From Candidatus Bathyarchaeia archaeon (GTDB lineage Archaea; Thermoproteota; Bathyarchaeia; Bathyarchaeales; Bathycorpusculaceae): a stretch of DNA of 63,213 nucleotides. Each line of letters opens with the position of its first letter. Position 1 is the stretch's first letter. Both the position numbers and the translations under genes were made by a program. The notes below the pieces were generated by a model. The model ran no database searches. It saw nothing but the letters and a program-made list of their open reading frames with translations, and had not been told where the DNA came from. Below, one piece after another: positions 2 to 4,763 of the stretch. Location: contig JBBFKZ010000004.1 in the NCBI GenBank assembly GCA_037481775.1, positions 70,252 through 133,464 of the forward strand, written 5' to 3'.

Positions 2-1435
2 AGGCAGATTAACAGTTACAGCTCCTAGGCAGCCTGTTCGCAAGGTATCTGTTTCCCAGTCCCCAGTCAAGTCTGCTTTGCAATTAATTCCAGAAGCCGA
101 AAAAACTGCGTATTTCACTTCTTTTTGCAGCATGCCCGCAAAGTATAGCAGTCCCCTCGTTGCTGCGATAGCATGCGCTTTAAGCAGAATCGCTCGCGCC
201 CTTTCATCTACCAACGCTTCACTGCTTATTTTAACAATAATTTTCGGGTTAAGCAAAGGTTTAAGAGAACTTTCTTCTTCAAGAATCTCGAGCATAAGTG
301 ACATTAGCAACAGGCTTTCTTCGGCAAAATCGCCATATTTGCCGCATACTTTTCCTTCAGGACCAATAGCTGGTTTATCCGCGATGAATTTTGGAATGGA
401 AGGTGTCAATCCAAACGTGGCTTCCGCGTGATGATGAACATTCATTAAGAATATGCGCAGGCTTTCTTTCGCTAAAGAAACATCGGCGCCTCTTATAAAT
501 GGCGCGAGAAACACGTTGAAATAATCGCAAGTTTGCATTTCATTCACTTCCTTGCTGGCATGCAACAGAACATTAAAAGCAACAGACAAAGCGTTCTCAA
601 AATTTCTGGGGGCTCCATGAGAGATTTGAAGGGGGCTCGCCAGCTTAAGACCGCTTTGAAAGAAAAATCGCAGGTCATGCATCACTTCATTTGGCTTCAA
701 AATCCATGTACCCAACTCGTTTACGTGAATTGCCCCGGCTACATGGGCATCTGCGATGTCCCGTGGTAACACATTCAAAAGCGTGTACTCCCTGAATACA
801 CTGTTTCCCGCCTTCGAAAGCATAACTGATGAGCCTGTAACTGGGGCTTTTGCATCCATTAAGGCGGTCACTTCGTAAACAGGCATTCCAAGCCGTGTGA
901 GTTTATGGCGGTAATCTTCAAAGCCTTTCTCAATTAAAATGGCGTTTACAACTTCCCTGACTAAAGGCGCTGTTAAATACTTAATTTTTGATTTGAATAG
1001 ACGCTTTTCCGCCTCTTTAGCTGCCTTCTGCGCAATTTCAGCGGGGACTTTGGCTTCTCTTACAAGCGAGTTGGCAATTTTGTTGGCGTCAAATTCTTCC
1101 AACGTGAAATGTGACGTGCGAACCAGCATTCCACGCGGCTTAACAGCTTTCTTTTCCACCTTGTCTGCCACGTCAAGAACCATCTTGCCCAACTCGGTCA
1201 AATAGTACTTCTTGGCTTCCGCGTCCGCCTCAACCAAGTCCGCCTTAAGCAAAAATTTCAGATGATACGCAAATCTTCCCGCGTCTCTACTGGGGTTCAT
1301 TTTTAAGGCATTAATTAACTCGGTATAAGAGAGGGCGCTTTTATCAAAAAGCAAGTTTAGAATTTGCAGCCTAAGAGGTGAAGAAACGGCCTTCAGAACT
1401 TTAACTCCACGTGCCCTATGCGGAAGACTCGCCAC
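2..1435 (-). CDS. ArsR-type wHTH + ATP-cone + class III ribonucleotide reductase (NrdD)-like fusion, truncated at window start
   Basis: Not in the ORF track (runs off the edge). Manual translation from GTG 1435: VLKAVSSPLRLQILNLL..GRFAYHLKFLL (wHTH); VRTSHFTLEEFDANKIANSL..LTAPLVREVVNAIL (ATP-cone); LPRDIADAHVAGAIH and DWETDTLRTGCLGAVTVNLP (NrdD-like). Confidence 0.85.
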   Translation of the reverse strand, partial: MASLPHRARGVKVLKAVSSPLRLQILNLLFDKSALSYTELINALKMNPSRDAGRFAYHLKFLLKADLVEADAEAKKYYLTELGKMVLDVADKVEKKAVKPRGMLVRTSHFTLEEFDANKIANSLVREAKVPAEIAQKAAKEAEKRLFKSKIKYLTAPLVREVVNAILIEKGFEDYRHKLTRLGMPVYEVTALMDAKAPVTGSSVMLSKAGNSVFREYTLLNVLPRDIADAHVAGAIHVNELGTWILKPNEVMHDLRFFFQSGLKLASPLQISHGAPRNFENALSVAFNVLLHASKEVNEMQTCDYFNVFLAPFIRGADVSLAKESLRIFLMNVHHHAEATFGLTPSIPKFIADKPAIGPEGKVCGKYGDFAEESLLLMSLMLEILEEESSLKPLLNPKIIVKISSEALVDERARAILLKAHAIAATRGLLYFAGMLQKEVKYAVFSASGINCKADLTGDWETDTLRTGCLGAVTVNLP

Positions 1436-1787
1436 GACTCGCTTCCCTCAAACCCAGCATATCCTAATTATCTGAATAACAGTTTAAGCTTTAGCTATAA
1501 AGCCTATCCCACTATTCTATGGCACTGCATCGCAAAATGCTTAATGGCTGCTGGTTTTCTGCTACTGCCGCTGATAGCCCCTCTATAGGTTTCTGCAATG
1601 AATCGCTAATAGCAGCCAAATATCCTGACGCAAGCTTCATTTTGGCGGGCACGTGATAATTGTTACTTTAAAAATGTGCAGGGGCCGCGCAGGCGATAGG
1701 GATTTGCCTTCTTCAGTTGATAACGAGAAATTTTGGGCAGCATTTCTGTTGTGTCTTGTTTGTGAAGGCTGTTTAGCGAGGCAAACT

Positions 1788-2675
1788 CTATACTACAAGC
1801 GATGTTCCTATGAACATTAGGGTTACTGCTGAAATTTTCAGCAGCAGTGTTTCTTTGTTTATTTCTTCTTTGAGAATCCGTGGCGAGAAGATGCTTAGAA
1901 CGATTGTGTAGAAGAAGACATAAAAGGGCTGTAGTCCAAACAGAGAGGAAGCCAAAGAGGCGTCTGTTAAAGATAAAGCGATTAGTGAGCAGATTGTGCC
2001 TATTACGTAGAGGCCTTCTCCGATAAAGGTGGTAAGCAATGTCTTTTTTCCGGCCGCTGAAATTGTGTTGACTATTTCTTTGCGTGGTTTGGATAAAGTC
2101 AAAAGCAGTAGAGAGGCTGTGAAGGTTCCGAAAATATTCCAGAAGAATACTGACCAGAAATTCAGATGGTTCACAAGGGTTTTATCAGCTACGGTGTAGG
2201 AGGCTATTATTAAGCCAAAGGGTACCATAAACTTCAGAACGCCTAAAAATGGCTTTTTGCTTGCTTTCCTGTAAGAAATCAGTACTGAAGCGAAAACTAT
2301 TAGGGTAATCCCGATGTATCTGCTTGTGCTGAGGATTTCGTCAAGAAAAATTACTGAAAGGAGCACAACAAACACGGGTATAAGCTGGAAGAGAGTGACA
2401 ATTCTTGACACTTCTTCCGTTATTAGAGCTTTTGAGTAGAACCAAAATGCTACCAAGGGCATTATGCCAGCAGAAAAAGCGAGAAGCGAATATGGGAAAG
2501 AGTAACTAACTTCGCCTGAGATAAAGACAATTAACGCGAAAATCGCATCCATAGAAATGGCCGTGAAAATCAGCGGCAAGTTACTCTTGAATTTGTTGGT
2601 TAAGAGGAATTTTATGAAAACGTTGTTCATGGCCCAAAATGCAGGCGCGAGTAAGGCATATAGGTACCATTCCAT
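1788..2675 (-). CDS. EamA/DMT family transporter
   Basis: About 10 TM helices in two repeats; LFQLIPVFVVLLSVIFLDE motif. Confidence 0.85.
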   Translation of the reverse strand: MEWYLYALLAPAFWAMNNVFIKFLLTNKFKSNLPLIFTAISMDAIFALIVFISGEVSYSFPYSLLAFSAGIMPLVAFWFYSKALITEEVSRIVTLFQLIPVFVVLLSVIFLDEILSTSRYIGITLIVFASVLISYRKASKKPFLGVLKFMVPFGLIIASYTVADKTLVNHLNFWSVFFWNIFGTFTASLLLLTLSKPRKEIVNTISAAGKKTLLTTFIGEGLYVIGTICSLIALSLTDASLASSLFGLQPFYVFFYTIVLSIFSPRILKEEINKETLLLKISAVTLMFIGTSLVV

Positions 2676-2833: not shown

Positions 2834-4081
2834 ATGATGAGGGCAGTTATAATTCAGTTTCCCTTTGGCGTTGTGGCTTTTGACGACCAAGGCAAAATAG
2901 CAGATAAATTGCTGTTTTCAAACAAGCCGCAAGCAGCAGCCAAAAGCATTTTGAACATCGAATCTGGGAAAATCTCTGAAATCGCTTCTTTGTTAACCAC
3001 TCTTCAGAAACATGGCTATGAAACTTTTGTTTTTGAAGACGCCTCGCTGGCTAATGCTGCACAACAAAAGCTTGGCATCAACGTCGAAGTCGCAAAGGCT
3101 TCAGAAGCGACGGCTTTGCGTAGTCGCATGGAGCAACTGGCTGTTGAAACCGGGTTTGTGAAGGAGGCAAAGGCGCTTGCGGAGTGGAACCGCAATGTCA
3201 GCATAGAACTTGCCAAGCTACGTGTTAAAGGCGCCGTTGAAAAAAGAGACTTAATTATTGCTCAAGCAATTCAGACGCTTGACGATTTGGATAAGACTTT
3301 GAATTTGTTTATGGGGCGGCTTCGCGAGTGGTATGGCATCCACTTTCCAGAATTAGATCGCCTAGTTGAGAAGCATGAGACGTACGCCCGCCTAGTCACG
3401 AACTTGGGCTCCCGAGACAACTTCTCGGTTGAAGCTCTTGAGAAAGAGGGCATACCAAAGGATAAAGCGGAAACAATCGCTAAAGCGGCTGAGGCATCCA
3501 TGGGCGCAGACACGGCTGAGCAAGACCTAGCTGAGATTCAAGCATTGAGCAAAGCTGTTCTTAACATGTACAAGCTACGGGAAGACTTGGAAGGCTACGT
3601 TGACAAGGCAATGGAAGAAGTTGCGCCTAACACGCGTGCCATAGCCGGCGCGCTTCTGGGTGCGCGTTTAATCGCTGTAGCTGGTGGCTTACAAAACTTG
3701 GCCATGCGCCCTGCAAGCACAATACAGGTTCTAGGCGCAGAAAAAGCCTTGTTCCGTTCACTGAAAACTGGTGCGCGTCCACCAAAGCATGGCTTAATCT
3801 TTCAACATGCATTACTGCATGATGCTAAAAGGTGGCAGAGAGGTAAAATAGCCAGAGTTCTAGCTGGAAAACTCACTATCGCAGCGAGGGCCGACGCATT
3901 CGGCGGCAAATACGTTGGCGACTCTTTGAAGGCGGAGATTGATGCGCGGCTCGAGGAGATACGTGAGAAATACAAGGAGCCTCCGCCGCCAAAAGAAAAA
4001 GTTGCGACGCAAGAAAAGAGAAAGGAACAGTGGCGAAGAGATAAGAAGTGGAGAAAGAATAAACGTGCACGTAAAGGTTAA
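2834..4081 (+). CDS. nop5: C/D box RNP protein Nop5 (Nop56/58)
   Basis: LREWYGIHFPEL, PASTIQVLGAEKALF, PKHGLIF motifs; lies upstream of fibrillarin. Confidence 0.97.
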   Translation: MMRAVIIQFPFGVVAFDDQGKIADKLLFSNKPQAAAKSILNIESGKISEIASLLTTLQKHGYETFVFEDASLANAAQQKLGINVEVAKASEATALRSRMEQLAVETGFVKEAKALAEWNRNVSIELAKLRVKGAVEKRDLIIAQAIQTLDDLDKTLNLFMGRLREWYGIHFPELDRLVEKHETYARLVTNLGSRDNFSVEALEKEGIPKDKAETIAKAAEASMGADTAEQDLAEIQALSKAVLNMYKLREDLEGYVDKAMEEVAPNTRAIAGALLGARLIAVAGGLQNLAMRPASTIQVLGAEKALFRSLKTGARPPKHGLIFQHALLHDAKRWQRGKIARVLAGKLTIAARADAFGGKYVGDSLKAEIDARLEEIREKYKEPPPPKEKVATQEKRKEQWRRDKKWRKNKRARKG

Positions 4082-4763
4082 ACCTCACCCGCAGTTCGCC
4101 GAGATTTACCAAGCAACACTCGAGGATGGTGCGCAGCGGTTAGCCACACGCAACTTGGCGCCAGGCAGGGCAGTCTACGGTGAACGGCTAATTCGCTTCA
4201 AAGGCGTGGAGTACCGTGTTTGGGACGCTTTCAGAAGCAAGCTGGCAGCCGCCATCCTGAAGGGCGTGCAGACAGTTCCCATAGCACCAGGATACCAGGT
4301 GCTCTACTTGGGCGCGGCATCTGGAACCACGCCCAGCCACGTCTCCGACATAGTCGGCGAAAAAGGCCACGTGTACTGCGTAGAGTTCGCCTCGCGTTCT
4401 CTACGAGACTTAGTGGATAACGTCTGTGCCTATAGACGAAACATGTCGCCGTTTCTTGCAGACGCACGTTTTCCGAAACAGTACGCCATGTTCATACCGA
4501 GAAAAGTGGACACCATATACTGCGACATAGCACAGCCCGAGCAAGCTAAAATTTTGGCGGATAACGCTGACGTTTTCCTTAAGCCCGCTGGCTGGGTTAT
4601 GCTGGCGGTGAAAGCCCAAAGCATCGACGTCACGAAAGAGCCGCTGACAATTTACAGGCAAGAAGCGGAAGTCTTGAGAAAACGGAGCTTCGATGTGCGT
4701 GAAACGTTACAGTTAGAACCCTACGATAAGGCACATGCAATGATTGTGGCGCAACGTTCTTAA
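4065..4763 (+). CDS. flpA: Fibrillarin-like rRNA/tRNA 2'-O-methyltransferase
   Basis: YRVWDAFRSKLAAA, VLYLGAASGTTPSHVSD, DIAQPEQ; GTG 4065 overlapping the nop5 end preferred over 3939. Confidence 0.97.
   Translation: MHVKVKPHPQFAEIYQATLEDGAQRLATRNLAPGRAVYGERLIRFKGVEYRVWDAFRSKLAAAILKGVQTVPIAPGYQVLYLGAASGTTPSHVSDIVGEKGHVYCVEFASRSLRDLVDNVCAYRRNMSPFLADARFPKQYAMFIPRKVDTIYCDIAQPEQAKILADNADVFLKPAGWVMLAVKAQSIDVTKEPLTIYRQEAEVLRKRSFDVRETLQLEPYDKAHAMIVAQRS

Follow-up and report, generated by a model that had tools for sequence, protein, structure and literature searches.

Is a protein that joins an ArsR-type winged helix-turn-helix (wHTH), an ATP-cone and a body resembling NrdD, the class III ribonucleotide reductase (RNR), a working enzyme, a regulator built from an enzyme, or the product of a broken gene? 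The question is raised by the gene at the very start of a 63,213-nucleotide (nt) stretch of DNA from Candidatus Bathyarchaeia archaeon (assembly GCA_037481775.1, contig JBBFKZ010000004.1, positions 70,252 to 133,464 of the forward strand; G000:C4:70252-133464, with G000 denoting the source genome), hereafter called the window. A first-pass annotation, made from the letters of the window alone, had described the three parts in one frame and had proposed an inactivated class III RNR that keeps the RNR nucleotide sites to control DNA binding. Our analysis indicates that the product of this focal gene is, on balance, probably a non-catalytic regulatory protein derived from NrdD, and most likely an undescribed sensor-regulator that is mislabelled as an enzyme in databases. 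The three-part architecture in one frame is borne out by Pfam profiles, on the minus strand, which the first-pass annotation had left unstated, and is laid out as follows:

2..1435, minus strand: gene for the wHTH, the ATP-cone and an apparently dead NrdD, residues 1-478 of 737 amino acids (aa); single open frame with a GTG start at 1435
1172..1399, minus strand: ArsR-type wHTH, residues 13-88 (Pfam DUF7347, 32.7 bits; HTH_5, 27.7 bits, cut-off 22)
881..1126, minus strand: divergent ATP-cone, residues 104-185 (Pfam ATP-cone over residues 104-175, 27.8 bits, cut-off 25.8)
2..829, minus strand: N-terminal half of the NrdD-like barrel, residues 203-478 (Pfam NRDD positions 10-287, 77.7 bits)
G000:C4:69462-70241, just outside the window: residues 479-737 of the focal gene, beyond a scaffold placeholder of 10 N

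The window cuts through this gene. In the list of open reading frames (ORFs), its 478-aa frame runs past the first base of the window, and 10 N stand immediately before that base (L001:1490-1501), where the gene resumes in a different frame. The two Pfam NRDD matches abut at the break, as the window piece ends at profile position 287 and the C-terminal piece starts at 288 (positions 288-537, 101.3 bits), and together they cover positions 10-537. A 737-aa database protein (P0002), to which the window piece is identical, reads NLPRIVHES uninterrupted over the break. Likewise, contigs from three public runs, one of which is not a possible source of this DNA, span the junction in one piece with 11 letters fewer (10 N and one duplicated base), and dropping those letters restores the frame. 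Among the sequencing runs listed as containing the stretch, none is an RNA run. The genome holds six N-runs, which are scaffold placeholders given that five of them are exactly 10 N; here, the scaffolder set 10 N between contig ends that overlap by one base, creating a false frameshift in an intact gene. Because P0002 and the contigs of three runs read through the placeholder, the focal gene is intact at 737 codons and the break is a scaffolding artefact. The C-terminus, which the first-pass annotation had placed beyond the window, was thereby recovered, and the glycyl-radical motif proves to be lost there: the protein ends in CPSCGSMSTLTTFDRFAST followed by the stop, where the canonical NrdD of the same genome reads CPICSASCEVYSRVVGYL.

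The relationship to NrdD lies beyond simple sequence comparison, and profile and fold methods are needed to see it: a phmmer search of PDB sequences with the window piece gave no match at E 0.01. The AlphaFold model of the whole protein (predicted local distance difference test score, pLDDT, 86.9; predicted template modelling score, pTM, 0.76) retrieved only NrdD structures among the top matches of a Foldseek search of the PDB, with E down to 1.8e-24 and a target-normalised template modelling score of up to 0.75 against NrdD of T4, T. maritima and P. copri. The NCBIfam equivalog for NrdD, TIGR02487, scores 97.4 bits on the window piece alone, below its cut-off of 326.35. The wHTH has RDAGRFAYHLKFL as its recognition-helix region, and its residues G53, F55, Y57 and H58 are near-invariant in 54 family members; the NCBIfam metalloregulator model NF033788 reaches 34.3, under its cut-off of 55. 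In databases, many records are called 'anaerobic ribonucleoside-triphosphate reductase' and some 'ArsR family transcriptional regulator'.

The evidence against catalysis comes from an alignment of the 54 family members with 12 canonical NrdDs, mainly archaeal (the genome's own, five that adjoin family members in relatives, and six database representatives). Roles of positions were taken from the available account of P. copri NrdD (PMC11226230), namely the beta1 Cys171, the thiyl Cys416, the NxN flap and the HxHD motif. Within the window, the informative positions of the alignment are:

716..727, minus strand: remnant of the HxHD triphosphate motif, H237-V-N239-E240
686..688, minus strand: Glu250, in the column of the beta1 catalytic cysteine (P. 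copri Cys171)
80..100, minus strand: former cysteine-radical loop A446-S-G-I-N-C452, with Ser448 at 92-94 and Cys452 at 80-82

The thiyl column (P. copri Cys416) holds Cys in 12 of 12 canonical enzymes and in 2 of 54 family members, the focal protein having Ser448. The beta1 Cys is present in all 12 canonical NrdDs and in none of the family. The glycyl Gly (12/12 canonical, 12/54 family) is replaced by Ser736 in the closing R733-F-A-S736-T737, after which the stop follows, and the Tyr next to it (12/12 canonical, about 2/54 family) corresponds to Thr737, the last residue. The RxxGY motif is absent from all 21 focal copies examined in relatives. The rare survivors are scattered: the two members with a thiyl-column Cys are without both Gly-Tyr and the beta1 Cys, the one Gly-Tyr member is without the Cys, and the combination of thiyl-column Cys and Gly-Tyr occurs in 0 of 54. 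Substrate positions have gone the same way. Both Asn of the NxN flap are found in 12 of 12 canonical sequences, and the flap is deleted in 52 of 54 family members and in the focal protein; of the 54, 42 retain the first His of the HxHD motif (canonical H 12, H 12, D 11 of 12) and about 1 retains the second; the loop-2 Gln (12/12 canonical) occurs in 0 of 54 and is a gap in the focal protein. By contrast with these losses, the four Cys of the Zn ribbon (C705, C708, C719, C722) are kept in 54 of 54, compared to 11-12 of 12 canonical sequences. The assignments of the thiyl and glycine columns agree in two independent alignments. The focal protein is devoid of radical machinery, substrate markers and loop-2 markers and, judged by these columns, is a dead NrdD. 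The strings WILKPNEV, ASGINCK and RTGC on which the first-pass annotation had built its proposal are all present in the translation, and inactivation is upheld at the thiyl, glycine and beta1 columns. The Cys of its 'GINC' does not superpose on the catalytic Cys: Cys452 comes four residues after the column of the thiyl Cys, and two close relatives (P0003, P0082) have Leu in its place. The idea that the protein keeps RNR nucleotide sites survives in part, for the ATP-cone at most, and fails for the NxN flap, the second His of HxHD and the loop-2 Gln, which are lost.

The strongest comparative argument for a non-catalytic role is provided by ammonia oxidisers without NrdD. Archaeal ammonia oxidisers are aerobes. 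Five closed genomes of one family of the phylum (f21) all encode archaeal AmoA at 386-391 bits and are on that ground ammonia oxidisers. In each of them, the fusion protein is the sole NRDD match (50-75 bits, ORFs of 694-740 aa). These five genomes contain no canonical NrdD and no activase-level match to the NrdG of G000, the best matches (19-32 bits, ORFs of 240-388 aa) being at the level of generic radical S-adenosylmethionine (SAM) proteins. A glycyl-radical role of the fusion protein is not possible in these genomes. In four of the five, the protein ends directly after the Zn ribbon, and a gene combining an ATP-cone, Ribonuc_red_lgN and a barrel (class I/II-type RNR) follows about 200 nt downstream; over all f21 loci, the fusion gene is followed by an ATP-cone RNR large-subunit gene in 22 of 23.

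The ATP-cone has unusual features. Its roof reads V105-R106-T107-S108 instead of V-x-K-R. The available text on P. copri NrdD describes a Lys7-Arg8 roof that contacts phosphates (PMC11226230). The R-T-S roof was considered as a sign of a decayed cone, and this was rejected: most of the 12 canonical NrdDs have Thr/Ser at the roof (T in 7, S in 8), for which reason the roof is an inheritance from the parent enzyme lineage and not a product of decay. The equivalent of Arg91, R181, is invariant (54/54).

Nearly every genome of the order has a member of the focal family, which is also widespread in the phylum. A full-length copy is present in 40 of 41 genomes of the order (12 families), the exception being a genome that is 64% complete, and the frames are intact in 38 of the 40 carriers, the other two copies having a single TAA each. 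The first 200 residues (wHTH and cone) find a match in 255 of 401 genomes sampled over the phylum, in ORFs of roughly 600-790 aa, and this N-terminal module occurs in 56 of 56 f21 genomes. A sequence search scored 7999 candidates, of which 2041 proteins had E ≤ 1e-3; the 120 matches listed are 73-100% identical, almost all 726-752 aa long (one has 680) and mostly labelled Bathyarchaeia. In an exhaustive search of representatives, the number of clusters was 1726 at E ≤ 1e-3, 907 at 1e-10 and 333 at 1e-30, and the weaker of these matches include canonical NrdDs. Relatives are encoded by at least 587 stretches of a species-level genome set, and nearly all of the best 80 are labelled Bathyarchaeia/Bathyarchaeota. 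Members are also named in Nitrososphaerota/Thaumarchaeota, Thorarchaeota and Helarchaeota, and one f21 protein is 41% identical end-to-end to a Nitrososphaerota-named cluster.

Which RNR genes accompany the focal gene in its own lineage? The source genome does hold a separate intact nrdD/nrdG, which the first-pass annotation had proposed to look for. It lies on contig C3 in an operon of nrdR (Zn_ribbon_NrdR and ATP-cone; PF22811, 58.3 bits), nrdD and nrdG (radical SAM). Its canonical NrdD (708 aa, Pfam NRDD 660 bits) has SMCCRL and SRVVGY, and nrdG adjoins this gene, not the focal one. A class II-type RNR with an ATP-cone (nrdJ) is encoded on contig C7. Of 24 other genomes in the window's family (f1), 23 have NrdR, always just upstream of nrdD, as opposed to only 3-4 of the 16 genomes that represent the order's other families; this distribution, common in the one and rare in its sister families, suggests that NrdR was acquired laterally. 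A 16-bp near-palindrome, ACACTA-CTAT-TAGTGT (L002:642-657, contig C3), lies 44-59 nt upstream of nrdR at L002:701, with a CACTAT half-site about 20 nt after it. We take this near-palindrome to resemble the NrdR box consensus. Oligonucleotides for comparison are given in PMC12176259.

The neighbourhood of the focal gene itself is conserved in another respect. In 21 loci of the window's order, mapped with 8-kb flanks, pyrB stands tail-to-tail after the focal gene in 18 and pyrI further on in 8. Another 80 Bathyarchaeia loci were mapped; 71 of them have enough sequence to judge, and 68 of these have a convergent pyrB within 600 nt. The order focal gene, glutaredoxin-like gene, canonical NrdD (488 bits, RxTGY) and pyrB is seen in three loci of other families, and in two further loci the focal gene abuts canonical NrdD directly; the focal protein and the adjacent archaeal NrdD in these relatives are paralogues (30-32% identity). 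From these gene orders we infer an ancestral layout focal gene-grx-nrdD-pyrB, in which the window's family would have swapped nrdD for an nrdR-nrdD-nrdG module and kept the focal gene. As the gene was kept after that module came in, its role would not be redundant with that of NrdR.

Taken as a regulator, the focal protein may work as follows. DNA would be contacted by the wHTH, and an adenine nucleotide or a related metabolite would be bound by the ATP-cone, perhaps with a contribution from the remodelled barrel. A ligand-dependent change in conformation or oligomeric state would then switch DNA binding and tune the transcription of genes for the supply of DNA precursors, a logic that would be that of bacterial NrdR with another DNA-binding domain. 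DNA binding, ligand and regulon are all deduced from the features of the protein and its loci. In favour of this proposal, family members in other lineages immediately precede working RNR genes, and these belong to two classes. In the window's lineage, the class II RNR and the pyr genes are candidate targets; the regulon is uncertain here, because canonical nrdD has its own NrdR and the focal gene no longer adjoins any RNR gene.

The window contains the following elements of the focal promoter:

1482-1497, minus strand: B recognition element (BRE)/TATA-like TAGCTAAAG-CTTAAAC, conserved in the upstream regions of relatives
1459-1472, minus strand: GATAATTAGGATAT box at the expected transcription start, part of the conserved promoter block 1459..1497; candidate operator only
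1445-1449, minus strand: GAGGG, Shine-Dalgarno-like box of the focal gene

In the focal promoter, the BRE/TATA (TAGYTAARGTTTAAACT) is well conserved, and a weaker box resembling AATWAGGTA stands where transcription is expected to start; a TATA-anchored footprint over 89 promoters gave a low-information AATA[GC][GC]T box at that same place. A comparison of four G000 promoters (focal, nrdR, nrdJ and pyrB) for exact shared words yielded nothing meaningful. The element ATAATT-N(1-2)-GGATAT has two occurrences in the 1.82 Mb of G000, in the focal and nrdJ promoters. In ammonia-oxidiser homologues (L171-L189, L086-L089), GATC reaches 16.5 per kb in the promoter and 12.8 in the spacer before the RNR gene, whereas the gene has 4.3 per kb and 76 intergenic regions used as controls have 3.8, with 3 of the 76 reaching that density; with one genome per genus, the values are 13.5 and 11.4 per kb. 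Part of the signal is accounted for by conservation: one recurrent GATC site falls at the stop codon of the gene before, and further sites belong to blocks shared by descent. The enrichment is real, at 3-4 times the controls, and we keep it as a lead only. The spacings of GATC in these promoters hint at helical phasing. Focal promoters of the window's clade contain 2 GATC in 6.7 kb. In 11 of 28 relatives (e.g., L015 / G023), a long conserved word containing CAAGCTAGCCGACAGCCCC precedes the focal gene on the opposite strand, outside the window; it resembles a stretch of a tRNA gene or of another gene for a structured RNA.

Several of our results speak against a nucleotide-switched transcription factor, or at least narrow it. 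The window's clade yielded no convincing operator. Over 28 focal promoters and 114 controls, dyad and k-mer enrichment returned only the BRE/TATA and the RNA-like neighbouring gene, and a matrix built from other genera ranks the nrdJ promoter 594, pyrB 721 and the focal promoter itself 196 of 1046 in G000. The ATAATT-N(1-2)-GGATAT element was defined post hoc from the same two sites in which it occurs and cannot be followed outside the genus. Of the 80 Bathyarchaeia loci, just 1 has an RNR gene within 6 kb. Given the bona fide NrdR in 23 of 24 f1 relatives, the focal protein is not simply a 'missing NrdR'; a reading of the gene as the missing archaeal NrdR was set aside, as it misfits a lineage in which true NrdR is present. 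The ATP-cone, at 27.8 bits, barely exceeds the Pfam cut-off of 25.8, and with no Lys-Arg roof, its binding of ATP/dATP is not assured on the evidence of the sequence. Finally, the family shares about 25% identity with canonical NrdD, so that single-column assignments in loops are less certain. A regulatory, non-catalytic role nonetheless remains our preferred interpretation. It can be extended to an archaea-wide master regulator made from a dead RNR, in which two signals, through the ATP-cone and the remodelled active/specificity site, would coordinate dNTP (deoxynucleoside triphosphate) and pyrimidine supply beside a laterally acquired bacterial-type NrdR; NrdR would then act on nrdDG, and the focal protein on the class II RNR and perhaps pyrBI. 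We regard this wider scheme as possible, yet doubtful.

The same promoter results could be explained by a protein that associates with DNA and senses dNTPs or energy charge without being a gene-specific transcription factor. With a wHTH of low specificity, it might, for instance, couple nucleotide supply to replication initiation or repair, or be chromatin-like. The failure to find a specific operator in the window's clade agrees with this, as do the strict retention of a gene that is uncoupled from RNR genes here and its coexistence with NrdR. However, adjacency to RNR genes of two classes elsewhere fits gene-specific control better. The start codons do not suggest an abundant chromatin protein either: among 31 unique upstream regions of the focal gene and its orthologues, TTG is used in 20, GTG in 4 and ATG in 7, and this use of weak starts (non-ATG in 24 of 31) is a conserved preference. 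We therefore consider such a general sensor unlikely.

A second possibility is that the protein still is an enzyme, or at least processes a ligand, by non-radical chemistry in the remodelled barrel, with the wHTH serving autoregulation as in a 'trigger enzyme'. Between close relatives, the ratio of non-synonymous to synonymous substitutions (dN/dS) is 0.016-0.044 for the wHTH, 0.008-0.067 for the ATP-cone and 0.08-0.125 for the core, values that derive from pairs with dS near 1, some of them saturated. All domains are under purifying selection, the gene being maintained and not decaying, and the constraint on the core would suit an enzyme, as would the polar residues that the family keeps in common with NrdD (H231, D254, E373, E550, R604, D609, Y629 and E653). 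On the other hand, every substrate-contact and radical position tested is lost, and the core is the least conserved part: mean pairwise identity over 46 divergent members is 0.27-0.30 in the core, compared to 0.40 in the wHTH and 0.59 in the ATP-cone, which is better conserved than any other domain. Family members retain 31 of the 98 columns in which canonical NrdDs hardly vary, for the most part structural positions such as Gly/Pro, the NLPR motif and the Zn ribbon. Residual chemistry in the barrel thus seems quite improbable.

A third possibility places the effect at the protein level, the focal protein acting as a decoy for NrdG or pairing with active NrdD in a heterodimer, and its wHTH making contacts to proteins. 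Its paralogy to the adjacent archaeal NrdD would be in line with such a partnership, and so would the retained Zn ribbon. In NrdD, the Zn ribbon sits beside the activase-dependent glycyl loop. Yet the family is retained in the five closed ammonia-oxidiser genomes, where there is neither a canonical NrdD to pair with nor an activase-level match to titrate, and we judge this modulator very improbable. The remaining explanation, a decaying pseudogene or an assembly artefact suggested by the seemingly broken frame at the window edge, is refuted by the bridged 10-N placeholder and the identical 737-aa database protein, the intact frames in 38 of 40 relatives carrying the gene and dN/dS values far below 1.

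Other features of the surroundings are recorded here for completeness. Upstream of the focal gene and co-directional with it lies one further annotated gene, which the neighbourhood maps show to be a non-conserved neighbour:

1788..2675, minus strand: EamA-family transporter (Pfam EamA, 66.8 bits)

Beyond it, at window positions 2834-4763 on the plus strand, two neighbouring ORFs of 415 aa and 274 aa look, by eye, like the ordinary archaeal pair of Nop56/58 and fibrillarin. On contig C7, a short ORF with two CxxC pairs (L005, about 710-870), rubredoxin-like by eye, lies upstream of nrdJ at L005:937, and a gene that by eye resembles cobalamin adenosyltransferase follows nrdJ. In three relatives, the class II RNR is one open frame of 1062-1080 aa (G005:C21:26869-30054, G002:C3:23424-26609 and G009:C27:14560-17742). 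These long proteins match the 696-aa protein of G000 in two blocks, residues 1-375 and 372-696, which implies an in-frame, probably intein-like insertion of about 370 aa in the relatives.

Little is known of how RNR genes are regulated in archaea. According to the available portions of PMC9110341 and PMC12176259, NrdR is rare in archaea; these portions make no mention of the focal family. Similarly, the terms helix-turn-helix, Bathyarchaeota and Thaumarchaeota are absent from the accessible text of an RNR phylogeny paper (PMC9531940). In a full-text literature search, from which subscription journals and supplements were excluded, neither a protein of the wHTH-ATP-cone-NrdD type nor a regulatory RNR pseudoenzyme was described. 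With 255 of the 401 phylum genomes sampled and additional Asgard members, the family offers a directly testable candidate for an archaeal RNR regulator. If this proves true, it would be, within the literature searched, the first RNR found to be recycled as a regulatory pseudoenzyme. The label 'anaerobic ribonucleoside-triphosphate reductase' would then wrongly suggest anaerobic dNTP synthesis, e.g., in aerobic ammonia oxidisers.

Among known systems, class III NrdD (T4 1H78, T. maritima 4COI/4U3E, P. copri 8P23 and S. thermophilus 9D3X) has the same fold over the whole body, with the C-terminal Zn ribbon and the N-terminal ATP-cone in the same places. The focal protein differs from it in having no radical or substrate markers, in stopping at the former glycine position and in carrying an extra wHTH. 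Bacterial NrdR (Zn ribbon and ATP-cone, about 150 aa) likewise joins a DNA-binding domain to an ATP-cone and shares the genomic association with RNR genes that the focal family shows in other lineages; by analogy, a nucleotide-sensing switch of DNA binding may be common to both. However, the DNA-binding part is an NrdR-type Zn ribbon (PF22811) in the one and an ArsR-type wHTH in the other, the operator searches found no NrdR-box-like operator for the focal family, and the focal protein has a roof without Lys-Arg and adds a seemingly dead NrdD body of roughly 540 aa after the cone. ArsR/SmtB proteins are small metal-sensing dimers of about 100-120 aa. The N-terminal domain of the focal protein matches their HTH_5 profile over the Pfam cut-off, whereas its sensor part would be an ATP-cone together with a dead RNR. 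Trigger enzymes such as PutA and BirA also put an enzyme scaffold to a second use, sensing a ligand and coupling this to DNA binding, and they keep catalysis. The focal protein would differ from them in two respects, as its catalytic apparatus appears to be gone and its parent enzyme is an RNR.

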